This document shows positions 436 through 20,000 of a stretch of DNA of 20,000 nt, piece by piece. Source of the stretch: an uncultured virus (IMG/VR IMGVR_UViG_3300020576_002679) (Duplodnaviria > Heunggongvirae > Uroviricota > Caudoviricetes). Position 1 is the stretch's first letter; the number at the start of each line of letters is the position of its first letter. The DNA lies in the IMG/VR virus record IMGVR_UViG_3300020576_002679. The stretch is one strand, 5' to 3'. The notes beneath the pieces were generated by a model. The model was not told the DNA's origin. It searched no databases and saw only the letters and a program-made list of their open reading frames with translations. The translations under genes were made by a program, and so were the position numbers.

Positions 436-1269
436 TTAAAATCCTCCTTCCGGCAGTTCAGGCTTAGTAGCGCCTTTAACCGCCCACATTGCCGCAGTTT
501 CCATATCGTTCTGGGCACCGGTAAAGCCACGTTGAGCTAAACCGCTTAAAGATTGATTTGCAAAACTTACAGCAATATTGAAGCAACGCGCAGCTTCCGG
601 GTTAGTTGCGCGAGCTTCTTCCACTTCGCACACAGCCTTGAAGTCCTGACCAGTCTTTTTAGCATCCTCATCCGCTCTTCTTTCGATTTGTTGGATGAAG
701 CCCGCTGCCAGTGCCTTAAGTTCATTTACCTTCGCATGGCCGCCCGGATTGAACGAAATACCTACACGATATTCGCCTAAAGTCAATTTTCTAGGCAATA
801 AACCAGTTCCACTTTTAGGGTCCACTTCAGGCTCAGGCTGTTTATCACCTGCAAATACCTCCTCCTTTGCAACTTCTTCTACCAATTCTACCTTAGCAGC
901 CTTTAACTCTTCTTCGGTTTTATCCTTCAAAGCATCCACTACCGCGCAGAATAAGGCATCTTTCTTCTGCTGAAACACCGGCAATTCTTCGAACGGAACG
1001 ATACAAGGGTGCGTTTTTGCATCGGCATCCTTTGTTTCTCCGTAAACCCAACCGGCATCTACTTTGTCCTTCATCCAAGCATTGTGCTGTGCATCTTTGC
1101 CGGCTTCAGGGTTATCTAAACGGAACTCAACGCCCTTGATAGCGCTTTCACGCTGCCATTCTTCGGCTTCGTCCCAATCCTTTTGTGATGTGTCACCGTT
1201 GGCTTCACACCACGCTTTGTTTGCCTGATGGCAAACGATGGCGATTAATACTACCATTTCTTTGTTCAT
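436..1269 (-). CDS. RyR (ryanodine receptor repeat) domain protein fused to a C-terminal Acb2/Tad1-like helical hairpin domain (277 aa)
   Basis: The N-half has RyR hallmarks: QHNAWMKDKVDAGWVYGETKDADAKTHPCIVPFEELPVFQQKKD. The C-half reads TLGEYRVGISFNPGG..VNELK..R..METAAMWAVKGATKP, typical of Acb2/Tad1-like hairpins. The start is moved from 1356 to the ATG at 1269 (MNKEM), which removes the overlap with the upstream gene and follows an A/T-rich leader. Confidence 0.8.
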   Translation of the reverse strand: MNKEMVVLIAIVCHQANKAWCEANGDTSQKDWDEAEEWQRESAIKGVEFRLDNPEAGKDAQHNAWMKDKVDAGWVYGETKDADAKTHPCIVPFEELPVFQQKKDALFCAVVDALKDKTEEELKAAKVELVEEVAKEEVFAGDKQPEPEVDPKSGTGLLPRKLTLGEYRVGISFNPGGHAKVNELKALAAGFIQQIERRADEDAKKTGQDFKAVCEVEEARATNPEAARCFNIAVSFANQSLSGLAQRGFTGAQNDMETAAMWAVKGATKPELPEGGF

Positions 1270-1297
1270 GATATAATTGATTTGGTTAAAAAAACTA

Positions 1298-1942
1298 CTA
1301 AGTGAGCGAATCCAGGTGCCGGTAAATCCAACCCATTTCAGTATGACCGTTGCCATGCCATAACGCAGGAACGGTTTTATGAACGGTATTGATTATTGCG
1401 GAACCCTTAATTTGGAAATCGCTTTCAGGGCAAAATGCTATCGTTTGAAACAAACTGCAGCGGTAATCTAGTCTAATCGCGTTATCTTCTGCCTCCCGAT
1501 TTAGAAACCGGTCAGTTAAATAAACTTGATCGTTCAACTCATTTGTAGGAGGGTTTTTCTCATACATATCAATAAACGCCTGTATCTCTCCTCCCCATCC
1601 ACCACCGTTTACGAATCTCCATGGTGAATCATACTTAGGATATAAAGGTTCTTTATCTGCATGAGGATAACATGCGCGCTCCGCGGAGAATATCAAACCA
1701 TCAAAAAAATAGTCCGGCTGCTCCAACATAGCCACTGTGTCCCAAGCATCCGTATAAAGGAAATGAGAGTATTCGCGCTTAATACATGCTAGATGCTTAT
1801 ACGTTTCGTGTATCTTGCTGAGAAACCCATACCAAGGATGAACTATTATCTCATAATCCCACCCGAAAAAACCGAGCGACTTTTCCAGTTTATCACACTT
1901 ACCTCTATTGTCGGTAGTAGTTATTAGCTTCAACTTCTTCAT
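1298..1942 (-). CDS. PLOD/LH3-type glycosyltransferase domain protein (GT-A fold, like the N-terminal GT domain of procollagen lysyl hydroxylase)
   Basis: Ordered motifs FLYTDAWD, IFSAERACYP, RFVNGGGWGG, NDQVYLT, LDYRCSLFQT, WHGNG match the PLOD GT pattern (F.D.YD, FSAE..CWP, LNSG.FIG, DDQ, LD....FQ, HGNG). Confidence 0.8.
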   Translation of the reverse strand: MKKLKLITTTDNRGKCDKLEKSLGFFGWDYEIIVHPWYGFLSKIHETYKHLACIKREYSHFLYTDAWDTVAMLEQPDYFFDGLIFSAERACYPHADKEPLYPKYDSPWRFVNGGGWGGEIQAFIDMYEKNPPTNELNDQVYLTDRFLNREAEDNAIRLDYRCSLFQTIAFCPESDFQIKGSAIINTVHKTVPALWHGNGHTEMGWIYRHLDSLT

Positions 1943-2673
1943 AGCTTCTGATAGATTCTGTTATGAACTACGTTTCCTACAAATTTGTAATCGCCCGAAT
2001 CAACTAGCGGGACCATTATTTCAAGAGTTGCGGCAGTGCAGGCCGCAATACCCTGAAAGAAACCATACGGCATCCTCATATCTGCGCAAGCATCATCTAA
2101 CACCAAAAAACCATTGGCGTTCAATATCGGCATGTAATGTTTCATATCACTAATTACAGCATCGTAAGTATGGTCCCCATCAATATAGAGAATATCCACC
2201 TTCAATTTTTGCGCCTCTACGATAATAGAAGGTAACATAGAAGACCCGTGAAGAATGTTGTAATCCTTCTCAATTCCGAAATGGTCGTGCAGAAGCGCGA
2301 TATCTGCCGCATAATCCGACTCCCAATTATCACCGGAAGTATCAAGAGGGGTTACACCGTATCGAATTACCGTCTTCCCCTGCATATCAGCTATCAGGCG
2401 AATCAATCCAAGTATTTGCCCGCGGAATACACCAATCTCCATAAAAGAGAATGTTTGCGGCATTTCTTGTATAATTAACCACCACATCCAAAGGAAAGAA
2501 CGCTCTCCAAATCCAAAAATCTTTTGTGGAGTATCGTTAGCGCCCTCCACAAAATCACGGTAAGCCTTTAGCTTAGGTGAATTGTTTACCAGTGAATCAA
2601 ATTGCTCCTTCACTGCATTGTGAAATTCGGGCGTATCAGTCCAGTTGTTTTGAAGTTCTACTAGATTTTGCAT
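1939..2673 (-). CDS. class I SAM-dependent methyltransferase (Methyltransf_24-like, probable sugar/small-molecule O-methyltransferase)
   Basis: FMEIGVFRGQ (SAM motif I), ILYIDGDHTYDAVISD, GFLVLDD; ATGA overlap with the downstream gene. Confidence 0.85.
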   Translation of the reverse strand: MQNLVELQNNWTDTPEFHNAVKEQFDSLVNNSPKLKAYRDFVEGANDTPQKIFGFGERSFLWMWWLIIQEMPQTFSFMEIGVFRGQILGLIRLIADMQGKTVIRYGVTPLDTSGDNWESDYAADIALLHDHFGIEKDYNILHGSSMLPSIIVEAQKLKVDILYIDGDHTYDAVISDMKHYMPILNANGFLVLDDACADMRMPYGFFQGIAACTAATLEIMVPLVDSGDYKFVGNVVHNRIYQKL

Positions 2674-3482
2674 GTATTTAGATTAAGGTCAATAAAAGGG
2701 TTATAATAAAGAGGTTCAGTTCCGTTGTAATAGCCATCACGAAGTTTGGCAAATGCCTCTCCGCTGCGCGATGCCTCATGCTGTTTCCAGTCCATGTATT
2801 TAGTTCCGCCCGGATCAATGTGAGAAATATCCACTCCGCACAGGAAAGCATTTTTAAAGCCTGCTACACGGCTACGGCAGGAAATATCTACATCGTCATA
2901 CCCATACAGTCCAGGCTGACGAAGATAGCCCACTTGGTCGAGCAGGGCGCTATTAAACATGGTGCACGTTCCCATGATATCCTCCGTTTGCTCCACAATC
3001 AACCATTTTTCACCGGGCTTGTGTGGAAGCATTACCAGTTTCGAACGGAAGAAGGAAGTTTCATGGTCGGGGAATTGTTGCAGGTCACGTCTTTTCAACC
3101 CTAGCACTCCTATAGCAGGGTCACGCTCTAGCGCATCCACCATATCATCCACCCAACTGTTAGGATAGTGAACAATAACATCGTTGTCAATCTTGATAAC
3201 GTGCTGACCGGGCTTACGGTACATGTTTATTCCCTGATTGATAGCGTAAGCAGTTCCTTTGTTATCTGTGTTAGAGATAACAGCAACATTCTCATTAGTA
3301 TTACAGAATCTATAGATAGCACTAACAGTTTCCTTACAAGAGCCATTATCTATAATCACAACTTTGTGATGTAGTAGTTGCTTCTGCAGTGTTCCGTAAA
3401 GCGTAGCAATAGTTAAATCAGTTCTGCCACTTCCTTCTAGGTCATGCACAGCCATACAAATCAATACTTCTTTCATATTCAA
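2661..3482 (-). CDS. family 2 glycosyltransferase (GT-A)
   Basis: VVIIDNGS, NKGTAYAINQG, DxD motif KIDND, GTCTMF..LLDQVGYL, YGYDDVDISCR..AG. Confidence 0.88.
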   Translation of the reverse strand: MNMKEVLICMAVHDLEGSGRTDLTIATLYGTLQKQLLHHKVVIIDNGSCKETVSAIYRFCNTNENVAVISNTDNKGTAYAINQGINMYRKPGQHVIKIDNDVIVHYPNSWVDDMVDALERDPAIGVLGLKRRDLQQFPDHETSFFRSKLVMLPHKPGEKWLIVEQTEDIMGTCTMFNSALLDQVGYLRQPGLYGYDDVDISCRSRVAGFKNAFLCGVDISHIDPGGTKYMDWKQHEASRSGEAFAKLRDGYYNGTEPLYYNPFIDLNLNTCKI

Positions 3483-3485
3483 AAT

Positions 3486-4019
3486 TTAAAATGGTAAATC
3501 ATCATCCTCTGCAGTAGTATAACCAGTCCACACCTTTGCATTAATCTGCTCCACCTGAATACGGAACTGCTCGATGCACTGCGTCCACACAGTAACATAC
3601 TTCTCCTTTCCTACTTCTATTTTGTTTGGCTGAATATAGTCCACTGTGCGACCTATCTTCTCCTCCCCCTGTTTCAACCAACAGAACGAAATTTTTTCAT
3701 TCTTTTCAGAACCCGACACCCCGATTGTTATCGCCTTGTCAAAGTCCTTTACGTTGTTAATGCGGTCAAAGAAGCCCAACGCATAAAAAGATTCTGCCGT
3801 GAAGGTGAGTAAGCAGGTTTCATCTGTCTTTTCATCTTTCAAAGTTACACGGACCTTATCCATCGGCTTTCCCTCAAAGTCATCTTCGAAGATTTCTACC
3901 TTTTCCAGTTTGCCGGAGTAGGCATAGGCGCTAATATTTTGTTTCTTGTTTACGAGCTTGCCGCAACTTACGTTTAAGTAAAGTTTTTTGCCGCCATCGC
4001 CCTGAGAGTGCATACCCAT
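3486..4019 (-). CDS. putative single-stranded DNA-binding protein (non-canonical phage type)
   Basis: Beta-rich sequence ending in the acidic SSB-type tail EDDDLPF; adjacent to RNase H. Confidence 0.55.
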   Translation of the reverse strand: MGMHSQGDGGKKLYLNVSCGKLVNKKQNISAYAYSGKLEKVEIFEDDFEGKPMDKVRVTLKDEKTDETCLLTFTAESFYALGFFDRINNVKDFDKAITIGVSGSEKNEKISFCWLKQGEEKIGRTVDYIQPNKIEVGKEKYVTVWTQCIEQFRIQVEQINAKVWTGYTTAEDDDLPF

Positions 4020-4031
4020 AGTGTTACGTTT

Positions 4032-4691
4032 TTACCAAATGATTTTAATGAATAATGATTGATTGAATTCTTGTTCACTTACTGCAATTAAGTCCCCGGA
4101 GGCACCCTGATACGCCCGCTTCAGTAATATATTCCCGCTGCCCTCTAGCTTCGCATACACCTTATACACCTTTGTGTAAACACTACCTTCCGCCCTAGCT
4201 GCCACGCTATCGCCCGCCTCCGCCTCTTTATAGCTGATAAGCTGTCCGTCCTTGAACTGCATAGCCATCTTCCTAGCTGTAGCGTCTGCCAGTTCATTAA
4301 ACGGGTTACCGGCATGGCCTACTATATACTTGAATTTAGGCTTTAGCTTCATACCTAACACAAATATCTGTTTGAGTAGAGATAAGTTAGCCCACCCTTC
4401 GCAGCCCTTCCAATCTTTTTTCCCCATCACCCACGTTCTTTCAATATACTCTAGCGCCTGATGAGAATCAACATGGAATATGATATCTGTAGGCGTATTC
4501 TTTTGCTCATCTGCCCAACGCAATGCCTCCAATATTGCCATTACCTCCATCTGTAAAGCGGAAGTGTGACAAGCTCCACCGGAGCGAATAACTGTGTTTT
4601 GAGAAATGGCTACTTCATTAGTAGCTACAAAAGCCCATCCACCGGGTCCACCAGGGTTAACTAAACAGGAACCGTCTGTATAAAATCTCAT
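4032..4691 (-). CDS. rnhA: ribonuclease HI with a C-terminal extension
   Basis: FYTDGSC..NPGGPGGWA, QMEVMAILEAL, HVDS, GHAGNPFNELADATA: all four DEDD catalytic residues and the His are present. Confidence 0.9.
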   Translation of the reverse strand: MRFYTDGSCLVNPGGPGGWAFVATNEVAISQNTVIRSGGACHTSALQMEVMAILEALRWADEQKNTPTDIIFHVDSHQALEYIERTWVMGKKDWKGCEGWANLSLLKQIFVLGMKLKPKFKYIVGHAGNPFNELADATARKMAMQFKDGQLISYKEAEAGDSVAARAEGSVYTKVYKVYAKLEGSGNILLKRAYQGASGDLIAVSEQEFNQSLFIKIIW

Positions 4692-4936
4692 TTTGTAGAC
4701 TTTTTTCTTTTGCTTTTCTGCTCCGATACCTCATCTAAACTTTGACAAAGGTCACTGTAAGACTCTGCTTTCTGATTCAAGATGATAACCTTAATGCCAT
4801 AAACATAACCGTAATCAAGAAACCCGCCACTAACGGCCTTGTCAATCTGACTGCGCTTCCGCTTTACAGCATCCGCAAACCCCTGAACTAAAATAACAGG
4901 TATGTTGGTAGTTACCTTTACTTTAACCTCAGACAT
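4688..4936 (-). CDS. small basic hypothetical protein, possibly DNA-binding
   Basis: 82 aa; FADAVKRKRSQIDKAVSGG resembles a short helix-turn-helix; basic tail; overlaps both neighbours. Confidence 0.55.
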   Translation of the reverse strand: MSEVKVKVTTNIPVILVQGFADAVKRKRSQIDKAVSGGFLDYGYVYGIKVIILNQKAESYSDLCQSLDEVSEQKSKRKKSTK

Positions 4937-7001
4937 CGCTATCGTTTATAATTACCGGTAATCTGTAATAGCTATTACCCTCAATATGAAATCTTGTTTC
5001 TTCTTCCTCACATTTAATACTGTTAGAAGCACCTAGCATCCAAAAACAGTTTCCGGCATAATGCTTTTTCTGTCCTGCATCTATCACTAATCCAACGGAC
5101 TCATAACCCTCAAGAATTTTAATATAGCATGACCCCCACTCTATAACGAGTTTTTGCATTATCGTTTCAGTAATGGCAAAATCAGGAATACATAGTAGCA
5201 ACGCAATTCCATCAGGATTTTCACCGCACCAAGTAAACATATACTTCTGTGCCTTATCTACGGCAGTTCCCAAGGCAGCATATTCTTCTACCCGGTTAAA
5301 GAATGAATCTTTAGGGATGATATTACCTACCGTATCTTTTGGAGTAAAGCAGCCTATCGCTGTTTCTGCTTCCGGTAACAGACCTGACATGGCAAGCATA
5401 TTGAGCGCCATTTGAGTATTCTCATTTTTCAAGTTACCCGAAACAAACACACCTATCTTTCTCATAGGGAAGAACTTTTTAGTATCGGGTGCGTTCACTT
5501 CCTTACGGCTAATTTCATAAACCTTCGCACCTGCTTTACCTACCCACATTTCAGCCTCATAGCGATTGTCACGCTTTAAACTGAGGATAGGAGGAAGGAA
5601 TTTTATATAGTTAGTACGGAACCAAAAGAAGTTTCCCGAGAAATGGTCCTCCCATGTGTTTTGAGCCAAAAGCCAGTTACAGCCGGCTAGCTCATAGCCT
5701 GCATCTAGCGCGCAGATGCTTTTCTTCCACAGGCGCAGATTGTAATGATTAAGATAGTCCCGCCAGTTCTTACAGCTATCGCGCTGCTTCGTTACTCCCT
5801 TAGTATGGAAGTAAAACCCGTAAAACTCCTTTTCCGTTTTATCGGCATCCGCTTTTATTAAGTCCAGTGCAGGGAACTCAAACACCTTTGCATCGGTAGT
5901 ATAATAAACTACTTCTACCTTTTTATAGGAACGCATCAATTTCCGAAAACTATCTAGCTCCACCGCGTTACCAACAAACGAAACTTTAATAAGCTCTAGC
6001 CTGTCATACAGGCCCGAGTTTGATATGATAGCCATTTGCTCACAAACTACGTCCCCCCAATTATTAGCAGCCATTACATGCCAGTAGCCCACTACCTTAA
6101 TATCCTTAGATGGAATACGGTTTTTAGCATCGCTAGTAAGAACAAAGTCAGCAGCAATACCGAAAGCACGTCTGTAATACGCAACCAGTTTGTTATAGAA
6201 ACGAGCTAATCGGTAATCGTTTTCATTACCGAGCTCCGAGCCCGCAAGAGAGAACGCAGCATAACCATGGTATAGAGTTTCCTCCGTCCAGTTCTGATGG
6301 TGCATGGTTATAAAAACAGGGTAAAATACCTTTGCCGGTTCAGGTGCAGGATATAGCCCCTCAATAGCACAGGCCATATTTATACAGAACTCTTCTGTCT
6401 TCGAACGGTGATGCTCTACATACCCGGTGAAGGTTTTATCTTTCCATACCCGCAAAGCAGTTGAAAACAAACGTTCAGCCGCTACCGACTTTCTAAAGAA
6501 CAGAAAAGAAGCATTAATCTGAGGAAGAAGATTGTTGGCCGGCACCATAAAGTGATTCATAGCAGGTTCAGGCTTTCCGTCCTTTACCCACCATGTATAT
6601 TTATCTGATGATTTGCCGCCTCTTTCATAGAAGCCCGTTGTCATGGCTAGAAAATCCTTTCCACCCTCACACTTATTAAACAGTGCAGCAGCGCCTTTAC
6701 CCGGAAGTATTAATGTATCGGCATCCAGTAAAATAGTTTCCTCAAATGGCGATAATTCATACGCAAGAAGTTTGGCGTACATTGCCCGGTGAAGATTTAC
6801 ATGGTAATCTTTTAACCGCTCACTGATATCCCTGCAATGTGTGAAGAAAGAGGAGCGAATAGATACTGATGCGGGTAAGCCCTGATGAAGGAGCATAACA
6901 TCAATATCGTTTGATTTGTTGGCGCGTATAGATAGGCACAGATTCAATGCCATTTCGCAGTATTTATCTCCTAGCGCAACTATTACTATTCCTTTGCTCA
7001 T
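4929..7001 (-). CDS. multidomain glycosyltransferase-like protein (690 aa): N-terminal GT-A (GT8-like) domain, a central HTKG/HFSGNFFW domain and a degenerate repeat of it
   Basis: AKLLAYELSPFEETILLDADT (DxD) and QINASFLFF; then YFHTKGVT..WRDYL..HFSGNFFW..RYEAEMWVG; then a third segment with HYAGNCFW. Confidence 0.75.
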   Translation of the reverse strand: MSKGIVIVALGDKYCEMALNLCLSIRANKSNDIDVMLLHQGLPASVSIRSSFFTHCRDISERLKDYHVNLHRAMYAKLLAYELSPFEETILLDADTLILPGKGAAALFNKCEGGKDFLAMTTGFYERGGKSSDKYTWWVKDGKPEPAMNHFMVPANNLLPQINASFLFFRKSVAAERLFSTALRVWKDKTFTGYVEHHRSKTEEFCINMACAIEGLYPAPEPAKVFYPVFITMHHQNWTEETLYHGYAAFSLAGSELGNENDYRLARFYNKLVAYYRRAFGIAADFVLTSDAKNRIPSKDIKVVGYWHVMAANNWGDVVCEQMAIISNSGLYDRLELIKVSFVGNAVELDSFRKLMRSYKKVEVVYYTTDAKVFEFPALDLIKADADKTEKEFYGFYFHTKGVTKQRDSCKNWRDYLNHYNLRLWKKSICALDAGYELAGCNWLLAQNTWEDHFSGNFFWFRTNYIKFLPPILSLKRDNRYEAEMWVGKAGAKVYEISRKEVNAPDTKKFFPMRKIGVFVSGNLKNENTQMALNMLAMSGLLPEAETAIGCFTPKDTVGNIIPKDSFFNRVEEYAALGTAVDKAQKYMFTWCGENPDGIALLLCIPDFAITETIMQKLVIEWGSCYIKILEGYESVGLVIDAGQKKHYAGNCFWMLGASNSIKCEEEETRFHIEGNSYYRLPVIINDSDV

Positions 7002-12975: not shown

Positions 12976-13007
12976 CAAATGTATATTATTGAATTTACTT
13001 ACGCAAA
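12976..13007 (-). promoter_or_regulatory. Bacteroidota primary-sigma promoter for the fibre/lysis block
   Basis: Minus strand TTTG (13004-13007) - 20 nt - TACATTTG (12976-12983): exact consensus. Confidence 0.7.
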
Positions 13008-16000
13008 CGGTTGAGATAAATCAATGTTTGGTTAGTTATTACCCCGCGATGAATGTAATTCTTTATCATCTGCTGTTGAGTAATGGCATCCTTACCATCT
13101 ATGTTTTTAAAAATTAACCGAGCACGTTCTTCATTATCCTTCCCTTTCAAAACCTCCTCTTCGGCAAGCTGCTGTATTTCTTCACGATTTATAGTTACTG
13201 CCTGTTCCGCTTTTGCGCGCAATTCCTCTAACTTTCCCTCCTTTCCTTTCTTTTTCTGTTCCATTCCGCGTCTTCCTCGTAGAGTAGGAACATACTTCTC
13301 ATCGCCCTGAAAGTCTTTTACTATTTCCCGGAACTCCTCATATTTTGTATTATCGGCCAGTGTGTTTACCTCATCAATATCTTTTTTGGTTTCCACCATC
13401 CAGTCTAGCACTTTTGCATAGCGCGCCTCATTAGCCGAATAGTATTTATCGGTAACCGCTTTCATTGCCTTATCCTTTTGCTCCTGCGAACGCTTTTCAT
13501 CCTGCACGATTTCAGAAATATCACGATGATATTGGTCCAGGGTATTATTTAGTTGAAATTTCAAATTTTCAAACTCCCGGTCACGAGTTTTCATCCGCTT
13601 CTCTACTGCGCGCCCAACTTCCTTATCATCAAAGCGCTGCACCTTAACCAATAAGTTAAGAATAGCATCCGAAACGGTTTTATATCTGCCATACCGATCA
13701 GGCTCTCCGCGGGAAGCGTTCCACAAATCATCAATCAGCGCAACGTATTGGCCGCCATAAGCTCTAGTAAGATAAGAGGCAATATTTTTCAACCGGTCAT
13801 TATCATCTAGGTTTACATCATAGCCCCACTTGCCACTTGACGGGTCCTGAACAGAACGCATGCGGAAATCCTGATCGTCCATAGCCTGAAACAACGGACC
13901 GAGAATAGGGTCACTATACATGAATTTAAGTTTGCGAATACCATTGTCTGTCTTCTCCCCCTTGAACGGATAAGGAGATGCCTTGTTTATCCACTGGATA
14001 TAAGACTGATAATCGTCACCTTGATCCCAAATGTATAAAGGCTCAACAAAGCGGGCGATATCTAACCGCTTACCATTTACAACCATACTCAACGGCATAT
14101 CTCCCCACTTCCATTGCTTGTCTGCATTATCGTAATGATAGGTAGGTGCGGAACGAGGCACAGACGTAGCAAAGTCCTTCCAAACTCCCTTTTCTTCCTT
14201 ACTCAATTCTTCGTTATCCTCATCACCACTCATTAACGCAAACGTCAACCACGAAAGGAAGCTGTACCAAGCTATTGTATACAAAGGACGCTTTACTACA
14301 TTGTTCTTTTCAATTCTAATTGCCTGTGCCACGAATCGGGCAAACATATTACCGATAAGCGGAGTCTTAGCAGCTAAGTCCCAATAGCGCCCTACTTCTT
14401 CACTTGTTTGGAAGCTGTCGCGTATTTGCCCTATTGCTTCTTCCGGTGTGTAACCATTCAAATCAGTAAGAACCATGTAAGCCTGAATTTTAGCCACATC
14501 ATCCACTCCGCTGTAAAACCCTTTCGCTGAATTGAGGAACCCTTTTTTACTAGGAGCTTCGCCCTGCAGGTTAGCAAGTGAAATATTATTGCCTATTAGT
14601 CCATTGCGTAACATAGCAAGATAAGCAGGACCGCCATTGCGTATTTCCATTACTGCCTTTGGCAGCATCCCCATAAATGCTACCGGGTTTATGCCGGCCT
14701 TGAAAGCCCAAACGTAGTTCATAGCAACGTTACCCGCAATTACACCCGGATTGAGCACGGTAAAATATGCCCGATACATTCTGCGAAGCCATAAACTATC
14801 GTAAGCCTGTGCAACATCATTGAACTTCTGCATGAGGTAAGTGTTATACATATACCCCTTTAAATCTTCTGCATAATGTTTTGCTACCCACTTATTAGAA
14901 AGTAAGCCGTAACCAAATCCGGGCATTCTTACATAGCCGTGGTCTATTTTAGCTGATGGAGCAGTTCCGAACTTCGCCATAAATTGAGCAGAAGTAAGAA
15001 CTCCTTTACCCGCCTGTTCCGCAAATAATTCACGGCTATACTCGAAGATGCTTAAATTCTTCATAGTCTGTGCGTACCGCTTTACAGTAAGATACACAGG
15101 GTCCTTCACTGCCTCTAGCACCTTATCCATACTTACATCAGTTCTACCTTTGTAAATACCCATCTCCGCCATTATCTGCTGTGTAAGAGCTTTAGCGTCC
15201 TCATCTTCTTCCGTCCAGTTGTATGAACGGGCGATGTAATCTGCTTTACCTGTCACCGGGTTTCTGAATTTCTCCCAAGTATCTTGATTGATACCCATTG
15301 TTCCGCCACTGGCAATCCCCATCATACGGTTAGTATCATGCGTTACAGTATTAAGTGAAGTAAGCAAACTCTTTAATGTGATTTCTTCCGGTGTAAGCCC
15401 TACGTTATTAAGCGTATCAATGTCAGTCAACACATTAGCTAAATCTGCCTGCTGTGCTGTAGTAGACAAGCCTAACCTGCGCGCATCATATATTTCTTTA
15501 TACAAACGTGCCTTGTCTGCCGCTAGTCCTTCATAGGCCGCCTGTTGAGGAGTGCCAAAGTGTAGATGCAATTCAGGGTCCATAACAGAAATTACCTTCT
15601 CCAAGCTACCCGGATTGTTTCCTACAATTTCACGAAGCGCTTTACCCATACGATTAGCTGCTTCCCCTCCAGTTGCTATTCCGCCTTTCATTTCACCGCG
15701 GCTCTTCACATAATCATTATTATCAATTACCCCGCGAAGCCATCCTACTGCAAGGTCCGATAATTCACGTAATGCCATGCTGCGCGATGTAGCCGCTTCC
15801 TGAACTCGTTTAGCTAACCATTCCTCAAACCCGCCTACTATTTTATCAGAAAGATAATCCTGCACCGGTATTTGCACTAACCCTAAATCAATTCGGTTAG
15901 GAGCATTGAATAGCCTGCTAGATACCGTGCCGGCTGCTTTTATTGCACCAGGTGGAATAAATGCCATTTGCGTCATTCCATCTACAACTTTCTTAGCAAC

Positions 16001-19000
16001 CTGTTTAGGTTTTAATTCTGCCTGCTTCAGTAAAAATCCCTCATGCACTTTGAGCGCCTTTGCCAAATCTTTACTTAACACCTCAATATTCTTATTCAGT
16101 TCGGCCAGTTGCTTTTCCTGATTATCGTCTTTAAATAAGTCTTCCAGTTTGCCGCCAAACATCACATTATCTTCATTGACAATGAGAGAACCCATTCCAC
16201 TTCCCTTAACCAAAAAATCTATGTTGCTTTCATGCGCTAGCTTTACTGGAAAGTTTTCTATACCGGTTTTATTGCTTTTAATATCAATGATATCAAGCAA
16301 TCCGTAGGGAAGCGTTCCGTTAATTGGCTCACCATCTGTAACAATTACATATCTACTAACCCCATACTTTGAGCGATTAGTAACTAAGCGATTTACAAAA
16401 TCAGGCTTATTAAGCTCCCCATTTGATATAGGCTCAAATCCATGAATATGATTTGCCGCACTTAGATAAACAATGGCCGTTTTAAGTCCCTTCTGTTTTA
16501 AGATAGCTTCTGCAACTAAAAACATATTTCGTTCAGCATCGCCCGCAGAACCTATTTTCGCGCGCTCATAATGGAAACTCTCCACCGGGTTCTTGTGCTC
16601 TCTTTCTTCTACATAACCCATACCAGTGATAAATGAAAATTTATCTGTATCAATTACTACATGCCCTCCGAATTTTATTCCACTTCCCCTAACCATGTCT
16701 GCCGTTCTTTGCGTAAATAATATATCGGCCTGACTTGCCTTATGATTACCGGAGGGGTGATTATGAACGACCATAATCTCATCCGCCCCCATAGCAAAAG
16801 TAGTTTCGACTATTGATTTTTGACTAGGAAATATTGTCATTTCGGGTAAGCCCAATGTTTGAAAAGAGGAATGAACCACTTCCCCATTTCTTAAATATAC
16901 CACCGCAGCAATCTCCATGTGCGGGTTTCTGATAGCAGTAAAGATATCAGCCAATGTTTCCGGGCTATCAATCAAAGCTCCGTTAATGTTGAACGACATT
17001 GTTTTTTCTAGTTGCTGCTTAACGCTATTCTCTCGAATAGAAAGAGGCTTCTTAACTAGAGAACCGTTTTCATACACCTCTGCTACATATACCTCACCTG
17101 CAGGTGAACGGTCAGGCAGACTTGCAATAGCTTCCTTTAACTGCTTTTCACTACCGTAAGCAATATCAACATGCTCCGCCTTTATCTTCTTCTTTGATGG
17201 CGCGCGCTTGATTTTTTGTTTTACCTTTTCGGGAACTTCATACCCGGCAGAAGAAAATAAATCAGCCTGATGCTCGGCAGTTATACTACCTACCTCTGCC
17301 ACATATTTTTTAGCCAAATCAACAGTTTCAAAGTCACCAACCTTTTCTTTATCTGCATACAAAGTGTATCTCTTACCGGCATCGCGCTCAACTGTTATTC
17401 GGTAATTAACTCCGTCTTTGGTTGTTTCTGCTAAAGGGTGCTCAAAACTAAACATATCTGTACCCTTCAATCTTCCTTTTTCATCTATAAGCTCAGGGAA
17501 GTTAAATATTGATTCTTCTACAATATCATCATCTAATGCGGCATCTTCATTTTTTTCAGGTGCCTTATTAATTACCTCCTCTTTCATTTTCTCCTCCACT
17601 TCTGCTACTTCTGTACGCAGGCGGGAGAGTTTATCGTTTTGAGTAAAAGGCTTTTTAAGTTCCGATTCGATAATCGGTATTCTTTCCTCTAGTTTCTTGA
17701 TACGATTATGAATATCATTCGCCTCAGTAGCGATGAACTCTAACCGGTTACGCAAGGAATTTATAAAACCTACACCCGCTGTTATAGGGCGAGAAAGATA
17801 ATGGTCATAATATTTTTCAGGGAAATGCGGATCTATAGCATAGCTTACATATACGTCCTCCGGCTTAACGGCTATACCCGAAGGTCTATCACCACCTATA
17901 ATACCTGAGTCAAACAATATCGGCACACCATTCACTTCTATTTGCTCCAAATGCTTCTTACCATCCTGAACAGACTTAATAATAAGCCCCTGAATAACGC
18001 TATCCACTACCGTAGCAAACTTTTCAGTGTGCGTAGTTTCTCCACGTTTCAAAGTAGTTATGTTGCCATCAGGTATCTTTTCATTCACATCTTTTACTAC
18101 CTGATTAATTTCAGGAACGCGGGCCTTTAACGATTCCAATACCATTTTATCATTCTTCAAATCTCCATTAAGCTGTATTAGTCTGCGCTCATGGTTTTTA
18201 GAAGACGTTTCCAGTTTACGGAGCTCGTAAGTTTTAGCATGCCATATTACAGCGTATTGACTTCCCGATAACGCGGCCATGCGCTGCTCAAAGCTCATAT
18301 CTGCCGGGTTGTCCTCGTCTGCCTCATCATTCATTTCACGGTCTAGTCCTTCACCTTTCATCATTTGATTGATGAATTTCTGTTTGATAGCCAACCGGCC
18401 GTAAGCAGTAGCATCAAGAGTTTTAGCCACACCGTAAGTAACTATATCAAAATCTTTATCCAGGTATGCCAGTTCATTACCCTGACGCAATCCCCGTCCG
18501 TTTCTTTGTTCAAAGTCCATCGGGCGCGGAGGTGCATCTACGTGATGTAGCGCTACCATCTTATCCTGAACATTCACACCAACACCCATCTTCTCTGTAG
18601 AACCTAGCATAACCCTCACCCTGCCTTGTTGCATCATTTCAAATACACGGGCGCGCTTCGCATCGGCTGACTTACCGGTACCTAAGTCATGGATGATTAC
18701 TATTTCATTTTCAGGTATGCCGCCTGCAATCAACTTCTTTTTAATATCGTTATACAAGTTAAATCGCGATTTCCCAAATGCCGGATTAGGTATTGTTTCT
18801 TCTTCATCCAACCATGCACCTTTAGGCGCAGGCGATTGATACATATCCGAGAATATTAATTGCGTTCCCTTGATATCGGTAGACTCATGGTAACGTTCTA
18901 ATACTTGCTCAACTACTTTATTTGTCTTGCTTCCCGGATCATCGTCTGCTTCAGGGTTCAGTAAACGTAAATCAATAGCCGCCTGCTTCGCCCGGTTAAA

Positions 19001-20000
19001 AATCAGCAGGGGAAAGTGACGGTATTTTCTTTTCTCTTTACCGGTCAGCTTCTCAAACCATTCCATTTCTGCGCGAAACTCATCCATCTGCTGTTTGAGC
19101 GCTTCCGATTGAGGAATAATTATATTGGTAAAGCCTCTGCGAGATAAGAACTCTACTGCTCCTTCGTTTGGAGAAGTATTAGTAAAGTAATCAACTAGCG
19201 CAGAACGTTCAGGCTTTCCTCCTAGCAGTTTAACCGCATCCGATATCGCTTTCCTTGTATCTTCCGTTACTGATATATTCTCTAACGGAATACCATTGAA
19301 ATAAGGAGTACCGGCAACATAATTAACGTTAGTAGGTTTAAGTTTGGGAATAGTTTTATCTTCCTTAAACTCGGGTATATCCTCTGTCAACACCACGTCA
19401 GTTTTACTTCTAAACGCTGTCAGTAATTCAGGTGCATTGATGTAAGACTTAAACCTTTCAACCATTTTAAACTTACCCGCAGCGGTAAATTCTAGTGACG
19501 GCTCTACTGCTCCAAACGTAGAAGCGAACTGATCGAAGTTAGATATCTTGTATTTTTCAAGAATATCAGGCTGTATGAACTTCATCATGGTCCATACTTC
19601 CGCCATCGTATTGGTGATAGGCGTACCAGTAGCAAACGTTACGTTCTTCCCTTGGTTAAGCTCCTGAATCCATTGTGCTTTCATATACGTAGAGAAAGCC
19701 CGCTGACTTCTACCGGTATCAACTCCCTTGATATTACTCATCTTCGTAAAGAATCCGAGTTTTTTATTTGCATGCGCCTCGTCATAAAACATGGCATCTA
19801 TACCCATCTTCTCAAAGGTCATTACTTCATCTGTCTTCCGGTCACTTTGTTTACGGATGCTGCGCTCAATAGCCAACTGCTGACGGGCAATATCCTTTAT
19901 CTTCTGACTGGAGTTTTCAATTTCCCCCTTCATTTTAGAAACGATATCAGATATGTTTTGCGCCTTTTCTTCTCTAGTTAAGCCGGTGCGTTCATTAGCA
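12995..20000 (-). CDS. giant DarB-like polyvalent protein (5'-truncated, >2330 aa): SF2/SNF2-type helicase, RadC-type JAB domain(s), helical C-terminal region like ejected internal virion proteins
   Basis: The frame stays open to the window edge (ANERTGL..VSKM). Helicase motifs FYDEAH (19772-19783), FATGTPITNT, QLIFSD, MGVGVNVQ, EQRNGRGLRQGN; Walker A must lie beyond the window. JAB motif VHNHPSG..ASQAD..GHVVID near 16765. The C-terminal part has GYTPEEA..PLIGNMFARF and PILGPLFQAMDDQDF. Confidence 0.9.
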   Translation of the reverse strand, partial: ANERTGLTREEKAQNISDIVSKMKGEIENSSQKIKDIARQQLAIERSIRKQSDRKTDEVMTFEKMGIDAMFYDEAHANKKLGFFTKMSNIKGVDTGRSQRAFSTYMKAQWIQELNQGKNVTFATGTPITNTMAEVWTMMKFIQPDILEKYKISNFDQFASTFGAVEPSLEFTAAGKFKMVERFKSYINAPELLTAFRSKTDVVLTEDIPEFKEDKTIPKLKPTNVNYVAGTPYFNGIPLENISVTEDTRKAISDAVKLLGGKPERSALVDYFTNTSPNEGAVEFLSRRGFTNIIIPQSEALKQQMDEFRAEMEWFEKLTGKEKRKYRHFPLLIFNRAKQAAIDLRLLNPEADDDPGSKTNKVVEQVLERYHESTDIKGTQLIFSDMYQSPAPKGAWLDEEETIPNPAFGKSRFNLYNDIKKKLIAGGIPENEIVIIHDLGTGKSADAKRARVFEMMQQGRVRVMLGSTEKMGVGVNVQDKMVALHHVDAPPRPMDFEQRNGRGLRQGNELAYLDKDFDIVTYGVAKTLDATAYGRLAIKQKFINQMMKGEGLDREMNDEADEDNPADMSFEQRMAALSGSQYAVIWHAKTYELRKLETSSKNHERRLIQLNGDLKNDKMVLESLKARVPEINQVVKDVNEKIPDGNITTLKRGETTHTEKFATVVDSVIQGLIIKSVQDGKKHLEQIEVNGVPILFDSGIIGGDRPSGIAVKPEDVYVSYAIDPHFPEKYYDHYLSRPITAGVGFINSLRNRLEFIATEANDIHNRIKKLEERIPIIESELKKPFTQNDKLSRLRTEVAEVEEKMKEEVINKAPEKNEDAALDDDIVEESIFNFPELIDEKGRLKGTDMFSFEHPLAETTKDGVNYRITVERDAGKRYTLYADKEKVGDFETVDLAKKYVAEVGSITAEHQADLFSSAGYEVPEKVKQKIKRAPSKKKIKAEHVDIAYGSEKQLKEAIASLPDRSPAGEVYVAEVYENGSLVKKPLSIRENSVKQQLEKTMSFNINGALIDSPETLADIFTAIRNPHMEIAAVVYLRNGEVVHSSFQTLGLPEMTIFPSQKSIVETTFAMGADEIMVVHNHPSGNHKASQADILFTQRTADMVRGSGIKFGGHVVIDTDKFSFITGMGYVEEREHKNPVESFHYERAKIGSAGDAERNMFLVAEAILKQKGLKTAIVYLSAANHIHGFEPISNGELNKPDFVNRLVTNRSKYGVSRYVIVTDGEPINGTLPYGLLDIIDIKSNKTGIENFPVKLAHESNIDFLVKGSGMGSLIVNEDNVMFGGKLEDLFKDDNQEKQLAELNKNIEVLSKDLAKALKVHEGFLLKQAELKPKQVAKKVVDGMTQMAFIPPGAIKAAGTVSSRLFNAPNRIDLGLVQIPVQDYLSDKIVGGFEEWLAKRVQEAATSRSMALRELSDLAVGWLRGVIDNNDYVKSRGEMKGGIATGGEAANRMGKALREIVGNNPGSLEKVISVMDPELHLHFGTPQQAAYEGLAADKARLYKEIYDARRLGLSTTAQQADLANVLTDIDTLNNVGLTPEEITLKSLLTSLNTVTHDTNRMMGIASGGTMGINQDTWEKFRNPVTGKADYIARSYNWTEEDEDAKALTQQIMAEMGIYKGRTDVSMDKVLEAVKDPVYLTVKRYAQTMKNLSIFEYSRELFAEQAGKGVLTSAQFMAKFGTAPSAKIDHGYVRMPGFGYGLLSNKWVAKHYAEDLKGYMYNTYLMQKFNDVAQAYDSLWLRRMYRAYFTVLNPGVIAGNVAMNYVWAFKAGINPVAFMGMLPKAVMEIRNGGPAYLAMLRNGLIGNNISLANLQGEAPSKKGFLNSAKGFYSGVDDVAKIQAYMVLTDLNGYTPEEAIGQIRDSFQTSEEVGRYWDLAAKTPLIGNMFARFVAQAIRIEKNNVVKRPLYTIAWYSFLSWLTFALMSGDEDNEELSKEEKGVWKDFATSVPRSAPTYHYDNADKQWKWGDMPLSMVVNGKRLDIARFVEPLYIWDQGDDYQSYIQWINKASPYPFKGEKTDNGIRKLKFMYSDPILGPLFQAMDDQDFRMRSVQDPSSGKWGYDVNLDDNDRLKNIASYLTRAYGGQYVALIDDLWNASRGEPDRYGRYKTVSDAILNLLVKVQRFDDKEVGRAVEKRMKTRDREFENLKFQLNNTLDQYHRDISEIVQDEKRSQEQKDKAMKAVTDKYYSANEARYAKVLDWMVETKKDIDEVNTLADNTKYEEFREIVKDFQGDEKYVPTLRGRRGMEQKKKGKEGKLEELRAKAEQAVTINREEIQQLAEEEVLKGKDNEERARLIFKNIDGKDAITQQQMIKNYIHRGVITNQTLIYLNRLRK

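Follow-up and report, generated by a model that had tools for sequence, protein, structure and literature searches.

Among the signalling defences of bacteria, Thoeris and CBASS (cyclic oligonucleotide-based antiphage signalling system) are two of the commonest, and a gene of an uncultured Caudoviricetes virus raises the question of whether a single phage protein could neutralise the messengers of both. The gene lies on the minus strand at positions 436..1269 of a 20,000-nucleotide stretch of the IMG/VR record IMGVR_UViG_3300020576_002679 (this whole stretch is called the window below), with an ATG start at 1267-1269 and 277 codons followed by a TAA stop at 436-438. Its product consists of three parts, namely an N-terminal RyR/R12 domain, a helix followed by an acidic, proline-containing linker, and a C-terminal domain of the Acb2 family. 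An original prediction, made from the DNA letters alone, had described it as an RyR domain fused to an Acb2/Tad1-like sponge domain. In the reading that we consider reasonably probable, the protein would be a two-module signal sponge on a flexible tether, with the RyR half taking up 2' and 3' cyclic ADP-ribose (2'cADPR and 3'cADPR) of Thoeris and the Acb2-type half a cyclic dinucleotide of CBASS.

The RyR domain and its characterised relatives

The N-terminal domain comprises residues 1-116 (922..1269, minus strand) and matches the Pfam family RyR (PF02026) with 41.6 bits against a cut-off of 27.4 (E 1.5e-10). Searched by sequence, the PDB yielded repeat domains of ryanodine receptors, RyR-like proteins from bacteria and 35tm_A, a chain of 139 residues named 'RyR domain-containing protein'. 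When the full-length model was compared with the PDB by Foldseek, all rows shown were ryanodine-receptor or bacterial RyR-like structures, with a probability of 1.00 in the top rows and a best E-value of 7.4e-3; these E-values are weak because the query has two domains. The original prediction had placed the RyR repeat at ~925-1245, and similarity to characterised phage RyR proteins indeed spans residues 1-116 (~922-1269).

Two of these phage proteins bear directly on the function of the domain. Ruegeria phage V21 gp52 (P0235) is 51% identical over the whole RyR domain (E 9e-41), and is identical letter for letter to the RyDEP homologue H4 as printed in the supplement of PMC13232231. According to that paper, H4, from a Ruegeria phage, and H7, from a Pectobacterium phage, are nanomolar sponges of 3'cADPR and 2'cADPR that defeat type I Thoeris. 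The same Pectobacterium protein, gp68 of phage vB_PatP_CB1 (CB1 gp68, 'RyR Tad'; P0236), shares 44% identity with the window's protein, again over the whole RyR domain (E 4e-31). In 10.64898/2026.06.04.730250, gp68 is reported as a dimer with a dissociation constant of 43 nM for 3'cADPR, which it contacts through H129, W132, K147, H154, K170 and D171; the substitution W132A abolishes its activity. These six residues align with H62, W65, K80, H87, K103 and D104 of the window's protein, all six are invariant in the corresponding alignment (A3), and together they form the predicted cADPR pocket. The two papers, both preprints of 2026, establish by experiment what the original prediction had proposed, that phage RyR domains are signal-binding anti-defence modules, and they render out of date its remark that stand-alone phage RyR proteins have no settled function. 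Supplement 2 of PMC13232231 also lists the homologues H3, H5, H6, H7 and H8 as much longer than the R12-like pieces cloned for the assay.

The C-terminal domain, a long form within the Acb2 family

The C-terminal domain covers residues 162-277 (439..786, minus strand). The original prediction had located an Acb2/Tad1-like region at ~460-786, the homology to proteins of the Pfam family Acb2_Tad1_hairpin (PF24729) bears this out, and the peptide that it quoted is found exactly in the translation. Used alone as a phmmer query (P0002, 128 residues) against 5.8 billion proteins, the domain obtained 274 matches at E <= 0.01; among those listed, 117 of 120 carry PF24729, mostly as stand-alone proteins of 70-95 residues, and the best stand-alone PF24729 match (90 residues) has an E-value of 8.9e-14. 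An exhaustive phmmer search of 1.84 billion representatives gave 166 matches at E <= 1e-3, nine of them at E <= 1e-10. In a 35-row alignment of the domain (A2), 34 rows match PF24729 (best E 9.9e-17), and the window's protein has every element of the consensus G-E-Y-R-V-G-I-S-F-N-P-G-G ... V-x-x-I-K-x-x-A-A-x-L-I-D ... E-V-x-R-L-K-A-L-A-x-T-H-x-E-D-A-A-M-W-A-V-K-A-A-T-K-P. Its own conserved head motifs read L-G-E-Y167-R-V-G-x-x-F-N-P-G-G, N-E-L-K185, E225, R228 and E257-x-A-A-M261-W262-A-V-K265-G-A-T-K-P. The nearest clusters in a protein atlas were Acb2/Tad1 hairpin (0.89) and 'Anti-CBASS protein 2' (0.87).

When the A2 profile was run against PDB chains, T4 Vs.4 (Acb2, 7uq2) was recovered at E 0.0039, and its alignment agrees with the (E)..MW..(K/R) motif that the original prediction had given for the family. 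Tad1 chains appeared only at E ~1; a Tad1 identity was therefore considered and rejected, as the N-domain of Tad1 is missing and the RyR domain and linker stand in its place.

Relative to the other 32 rows of A2, the window's domain and the proteins P0003 and P0116 have two extra segments. The first, within residues ~197-221 (607..681, minus strand; boundaries approximate), lengthens the loop that joins the two family helices and is modelled as a helix (domain residues 51-71) where ordinary members have a short loop. The second is a stretch of 19 residues, 233-251 (517..573, minus strand), which splits the second family helix between R228-x-x-N-I and A-Q-N-D-M-E-T-A-A-M-W; the columns concerned (101-119) are gapped in 33 of the 35 rows. 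The original prediction had noticed a long insert, counted EAARCFNIA as part of it and suggested that it might alter specificity. That peptide is the normal start of helix 2, because A2 aligns it with E-V-x-R-L-K-A-L and places the extra material before and after it.

To describe this long form, 19 relatives were chosen among the 150 matches listed of the 166 mentioned above: 18 that match most of the query in one stretch, and P0239, which does so in two. Both extra segments are present in 14 of the 19 (alignment A4). On the Pfam side, eight of the 19 have no family at E <= 0.001, nine fall under the PF24729 cut-off and two lie above it; since 17 of 19 thus go below the threshold, current surveys count too few sponge genes of this branch. 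In Table S1 of PMC12393519, the published list of Acb2 homologues, the motif A-M-W-A-V-K-G-A-T-K-P does not occur, and tblastn with the long-form domain against GenBank phages found no match at E <= 0.01. Most long-form members stand alone at 100-131 residues (P0116, P0238, P0241, P0246, P0250 and others), and a few lie behind other N-terminal regions that have no assigned family (P0111, 193 residues; P0240, 276 residues; P0336; P0371). Only the window's protein and P0003, among the relatives examined, combine the long form with an RyR domain. Judged by these sequences, the long form is a real sub-branch of the Acb2 family that annotation largely misses.

Structure prediction gave a confident model of the domain. 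With A2 as input, AlphaFold2 modelled the C-terminal part at a mean predicted local distance difference test (pLDDT) score of 92 and a predicted template modelling (pTM) score of 0.83, with four helices at domain residues 30-47, 51-71, 75-97 and 100-118. The full-length model scored pLDDT 88 overall and pTM 0.51, dropping to pLDDT 48-56 across residues ~131-160. This drop falls within the linker (residues 117-161; 787..921, minus strand), which begins with a helix at 119-137 and continues as a low-confidence acidic, proline-containing stretch at ~138-160, in keeping with the linker that had been read from the sequence. Both its length and its sequence vary among homologues (alignment A1).

The domain is also predicted to pair with itself. 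Two copies of residues 160-277 were folded by ESMFold2 with 3'3'-cyclic GMP-AMP (3'3'-cGAMP) riding along, and the interface score ipSAE reached 0.96, 0.96 and 0.93, against 0.00 for the best of three controls. The ipSAE mark was calibrated on solved structures: 20 of 30 proteins solved as same-chain pairs attained it, as did one of 23 solved as single chains; this calibration holds only roughly here, because the run used its own alignment and a ligand. Contacts agreed at 100% between the runs and the partner pLDDT was at least 93. The interface is symmetric and includes K-L-T-L, Y167, R168, G170, P175, E225, I232, N254, T258, M261, W262, K265 and the C-terminal tail. These models support a head-to-head dimer formed through the conserved head, at the place where Acb2 pairs to hold a dinucleotide.

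The residues at this interface can be compared with those of PaMx33 Acb2, in which two protomers stack a dinucleotide with Y11 and form a salt bridge to it with K26, and three protomers hold a trinucleotide with R67 and T74, the last two residues being variable among true Acb2 homologues. The mutagenesis primers for PaMx33 Acb2 read G-Y11-R and N-R-V-K26, the latter in line with the N-x-x-K motif given in the original prediction, and by eye, at the level of motifs, they correspond to E-Y167-R and N-E-L-K185 here. Y167 lies within the predicted two-fold interface and K185 is invariant in A1. R228, the motif-level counterpart of R67, is at least 90% conserved (A2, A4).

Some members of the same clade have been assayed. 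It is represented among the 9141 Acb2 homologues in Table S1 of PMC12393519, where G-E-Y-R-V-G occurs 125 times and A-A-M-W-A-V-K-A 310 times. In the screen table of that paper, the plaque-assay column has a 'y' for clade member no. 42 with the CBASS of E. albertii, whose signal is 3'3'-cGAMP, and member no. 15 is positive against a CBASS that uses 3'3'-cyclic UMP-AMP (3'3'-cUA). No. 12, which has an F-N-P-S-G motif, scored positive with type I Thoeris as well as with a CBASS, and the F-N-P clade relative no. 2 inhibited none of seven systems. As these outcomes differ, the ligands of the clade vary.

Fusion partners and the weighing of explanations

The joining of RyR domains to other modules recurs among relatives of the whole protein. 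Fusions were counted from the precomputed Pfam column of 113 such relatives, a list biased to proteins sharing words with the query, and examples were rechecked. An RyR domain together with Acb2_Tad1_hairpin was present in at least 34 of the 113; this is a lower bound, as the hairpin of P0004 reaches only E 0.0018, P0003 has no hairpin match, and in P0015 and P0025 the hairpin is visible only in A1. Fusion of RyR to PF11195, used as the Tad2 family in PMC12393519, was found in 15 relatives (e.g., P0011, P0017 and P0024), to PF13876, the Acb4 family (PMC11722364), in one (P0096), and to DHH/DHHA1 in one (P0056), the last of which suggests a pairing of a sponge with a phosphodiesterase. The Tad2, Acb4 and DHH/DHHA1 partners sit on either side of the RyR domain. 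In P0005 (286 residues), A1 shows an extra region of ~70 residues (~125-200) between the RyR and hairpin domains, which may be a third module; a lenient Pfam scan of this middle region found nothing credible. In P0267, a hairpin domain is fused to a crAss001_48-related one, an architecture deliberately excluded from the published screen of PMC12393519.

A survey of fusions and adjacency had been proposed along with the original prediction. Seven IMG/VR loci were inspected, of which three encode an RyR-hairpin fusion and four a stand-alone RyR gene. In one of them (L001), a Tad2-like gene of 91 residues (78.3 bits; 3504-3776, plus strand) stands directly upstream of a 210-residue RyR-hairpin fusion (3947-4576, plus strand), and the two make up a small anti-signalling cluster. 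The literature on phage RyR proteins yielded only PMC13232231 and 10.64898/2026.06.04.730250, and neither contains 'Acb2' with a fusion, or 'hairpin'. In ~11 rows of Table S1 of PMC12393519, RyR is fused to an Acb2 domain of a different subtype, and the main text of that paper has none of the words 'fused', 'PF02026' and 'hairpin'. We thus found no paper that discusses the RyR-Acb2 pairing, though such fusions stand in a published supplementary list.

From these data we infer the ligands of both halves, the choice of a sponge over an enzyme and the oligomeric state of the whole protein. The RyR/R12 domain probably dimerises like its characterised relatives, whose homodimers are back-to-back through helices alpha1 and alpha4, and, by homology, would bind 3'cADPR and 2'cADPR in the pocket of H62, W65, K80, H87, K103 and D104, holding the signals rather than cutting them. 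At the other end of the tether, the C-terminal heads, made of the G-E-Y-R-V-G-x-x-F-N-P-G-G strand, Lys185 and the A-A-M-W-A-V-K-G-A-T-K-P end, would pair about a two-fold axis and sequester a CBASS-type cyclic dinucleotide, as Acb2 holds one between the Tyr and Lys of two protomers. A CBASS dinucleotide is proposed because in the model the heads pair where Acb2 holds its dinucleotide and because a 3'3'-cGAMP CBASS is blocked by the closest relative tested. With the two extra helices, the hairpin would become a four-helix bundle, and the helix that makes up the trinucleotide site of Acb2 would be interrupted, so this second site is probably changed or lost.

Several observations weigh against this reading, mostly where it concerns the C-terminal half. 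The PF24729 score stays below the 27-bit gathering cut-off, at 20.6 bits (E 5.1e-4) for the whole protein, where residues 175-268 match profile positions 4-57 of 58, and at 25.2 bits (E 1.9e-5) for the domain alone; the shortfall arises because the two extra segments split the match, and the cut-off is an operational threshold rather than a biological feature. A PDB search with the domain's single sequence gave no match at E <= 10. The fold comparison envisaged in the original prediction retrieved RyR structures for the RyR half; for the C-terminal model it retrieved generic helical bundles in place of Acb2 or Tad1 structures and was uninformative in itself. Foldseek against the PDB gave nothing at E <= 0.001, with hemerythrin-like proteins and designed four-helix bundles in its top rows, and a fold search of BFVD gave nothing at E <= 0.001, with Acb2/Tad1-hairpin proteins only at ranks 3 and 9 (E 0.28 and 0.57). 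VIA-align in its wide mode reached Z up to 11, with designed or unrelated helical bundles, a range common for helical models. The dimer run departed from its calibration in alignment and ligand, and solved Acb2 complexes may be remembered by the model. The Tyr-Lys spacing is 18 residues here and 15 in PaMx33 Acb2, the correspondence being by eye only, and the position of the Thr equivalent to T74 of the Acb2 trinucleotide site carries Asn, or the 19-residue insert displaces it. The catalytic dyad of RyDEP, the empty screen result of no. 2 and the Acb2 homologues that bind 3'cADPR rather than CBASS signals count against it as well, and each of them leads to another explanation.

Both halves could aim at Thoeris, since some Acb2 homologues bind 3'cADPR (PMC12393519). 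The C-terminal domain would then bind a Thoeris signal, 3'cADPR or a relative, or else cyclic UMP, cyclic triadenylate (cA3) or cyclic tetraadenylate (cA4), and the fusion would raise the capacity or breadth of the protein against Thoeris-type signalling. The same paper reports ten Acb2 homologues that inhibit type I Thoeris, one of which, Acb2_43, binds 3'cADPR and not CBASS signals. The Thoeris score of no. 12 agrees with this, and the pairing of two Thoeris binders is common, as Tad2, itself a Thoeris sponge, is fused to 15 of the 113 RyR relatives. However, Acb2_43 binds through an N-terminal T-H-L-V strand and lacks the G-E-Y-R-V-G / F-N-P-G-G head of the window's domain. The dinucleotide-holding Tyr and Lys of PaMx33 Acb2 are matched at motif level in the window's domain. 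Moreover, no. 42, the tested clade member closest to it, blocks a cGAMP CBASS in the screen table but does not block type I Thoeris, and we regard a shared pathway as unlikely. The other question about the RyR half is whether it cuts its signal. In PMC13232231, the RyDEP protein from mycobacteriophage DyoEdafos acts as a glycosidase, opening 2'cADPR as well as 3'cADPR, H75, W78, H100 and D117 being its key residues. By eye, in a match to the printed sequence that is consistent with A3, H75, D117, W78 and H100 correspond to H62, D104, W65 and H87, so that the His/Asp dyad is present in the window's protein and compatible with cleavage. Yet the catalytic dyad is also kept in non-cleaving homologues, as are the other two residues in sponge-type ones. 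Among the nine RyDEP-family proteins assayed there, DyoEdafos RyDEP is the one that cleaves; six of the eight others bind signals without cleaving them, and none of the eight cleaved. A sponge rather than an enzyme is predicted for the RyR half from its sequence, because it is closest to the sponge-type H4, at the 51% identity given above, and because the dyad occurs in non-cleaving homologues too; a RyDEP-type glycosidase appears improbable.

Two further explanations deny a signal-binding role to part or all of the protein. If the C-terminal domain had lost its ligand binding, it might be only an oligomerisation scaffold that multimerises the RyR sponge, as would suit the confident prediction of a homodimer, the disruption of the trinucleotide-site region by the insert and the failure of no. 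2 against all seven systems in the screen table. But the long-form domain also exists as a stand-alone protein of 100-131 residues, where a mere scaffold would have no reason to exist; its most conserved residues are the head motifs of the family, including the Tyr and the Lys; and RyR domains dimerise unaided, which makes a scaffold very improbable in our view. A function outside counter-defence, for instance as a nucleotide-sensing regulator of phage metabolism, could be argued from the position of the gene, 29 nucleotides behind glycosyltransferase- and methyltransferase-like genes and not in an obvious anti-defence cluster. Against it stand the demonstrated anti-defence members of both domain families, the repeated fusion of RyR domains to other proven sponges and the Tad2 gene that adjoins a related fusion in L001; we consider this explanation highly improbable.

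The two-module sponge, which remains our preferred reading, can be extended by bolder proposals, whose joint truth we hold to be doubtful. The long form may be a distinct branch in which the inserted helices supply, within one chain, the packing that a second protomer gives in Acb2, so that the domain would form a dimer and not an interlocked hexamer, would have lost the trinucleotide site and would recognise a signal outside the known Acb2 spectrum. More broadly, the RyR domain, which occurs joined to Acb2, Tad2, Acb4 and DHH/DHHA1, may serve as a fusion hub for modules that neutralise signals. Should this be true, uncharacterised domains fused to RyR would provide a direct list of candidate sponges or signal-degrading enzymes. 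Under the hub proposal, candidates would lie in the N-domain of gp68, in P0005 between its RyR and hairpin domains, and in the extra regions of the RyR proteins P0039, P0049 and P0080 (300-430 residues).

Genomic setting and comparison with known systems

The open reading frame ends at 436 on the minus strand and has its nominal first start at 1356. The start was placed at 1269, because the homologues in A1 begin there and the start at 1356 overlaps the upstream gene, whose stop is at 1298; the resulting product (P0001) has 277 residues. The ATG at 1269 is not preceded by a Shine-Dalgarno-like purine run, and the spacer at 1270-1300 (minus strand) is A/T-rich. A scan of positions 1-2000 for promoters and terminators yielded nothing usable: it found one promoter-like and one terminator-like site, each on the plus strand, and shuffled sequences contained more. 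For the 277-residue protein, the PADLOC and NCBIfam libraries contained no match, and PHROGs gave families of unknown function only.

All neighbours of the gene in the window read as phage genes by Pfam and PHROGs. Directly upstream, on the same strand, are three genes for a PLOD-type glycosyltransferase, a class I methyltransferase and a GT2 glycosyltransferase (1298-3482), which overlap or lie 29 nucleotides apart, 29 nucleotides also separating the stop of the glycosyltransferase-like gene from the ATG of the sponge gene. Within 4929-7001 (minus strand), Pfam detects a weak mannosyltransferase-like N-terminus in a 690-residue protein. A much larger minus-strand gene at 12995-19933 encodes a DarB-like protein of 2312 residues, with a match to a DarB-like antirestriction PHROG at E 8.2e-156, SNF2/helicase pieces and a RadC-like JAB domain; it is likely a second counter-defence gene of the window. 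Further genes specify a collagen-repeat tail fibre, an amidase endolysin, an RNase H and several glycosyltransferase- or methyltransferase-like proteins. A megablast search with the whole window against 50,697 GenBank phage records returned no near match. A Bacteroidota host is possible for this phage. The G+C content of the window is ~42%; one RyR relative is named from a metagenome-assembled genome of Flavobacterium, and RyR proteins also occur in Cellulophaga phages.

If the proposed dual function is true, one small gene that disarms both Thoeris and CBASS would explain broad immune evasion by uncultivated phages, and it would offer a compact tool to probe which signal a defence uses. The recurrent fusion of RyR to four signal-neutralising families is independent genomic support for the newly published function of RyR domains, and offers a way to new counter-defence modules through guilt by fusion. 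The two modules are known already, as is the fusing of sponges; what is new is the RyR-Acb2 pairing, which no paper found by the literature searches discusses, and the long form that escapes Pfam. As the modules and sponge fusion are already in print, the gain is incremental rather than conceptual.

The RyR half resembles RyR Tad (gp68) and RyDEP H4, which are phage proteins of the same Pfam family, and it keeps the ligand residues of gp68. In gp68, however, the RyR domain is C-terminal, behind an N-terminal domain of unknown function, whereas here it is N-terminal and followed by the Acb2-family domain, and H4 is a stand-alone protein of 122 residues. The difference from DyoEdafos RyDEP is one of activity, RyDEP being an enzyme and the window's protein a predicted sponge. 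The C-terminal half shares with Acb2 (PaMx33 Acb2; T4 Vs.4, 7uq2) the PF24729 homology, motif-level counterparts of Y11, K26 and R67, and a predicted two-fold head-to-head pairing. Acb2, in contrast, is a stand-alone protein, of 62-97 residues in the available screen table of PMC12393519, and a two-helix hairpin that interlocks into hexamers, while the window's domain has ~116 residues, two extra helices, a modelled four-helix bundle, a score under the Pfam cut-off, a displaced T74 position and an RyR domain fused to it. With Tad1 (7uav, 8kbh) it has the Pfam hairpin model in common, but the N-terminal beta-sheet domain seen in the tested Tad1 sequences is absent.

As a whole, the protein has a counterpart from a cultivated phage in SUFG_00048 of Sulfitobacter phage phiCB2047-B, an uncharacterised 188-residue 'hypothetical protein' in which an RyR domain (40.5 bits) is likewise followed by Acb2_Tad1_hairpin (33.4 bits). 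SUFG_00048 differs in having the ordinary short form of the hairpin, in belonging to an N4-like phage and in having both domains above their Pfam cut-offs. A precedent for the proposed principle is Acb4-Sequestin (gp59 of Pseudomonas phage Ab09), which counters type I Thoeris strongly and type II-A CBASS partly. In it, as is proposed for the window's protein, two signal sponges that are unrelated to each other have been joined by nature in a single phage protein, although the modules joined are Acb4 and Sequestin there and RyR and Acb2 here.

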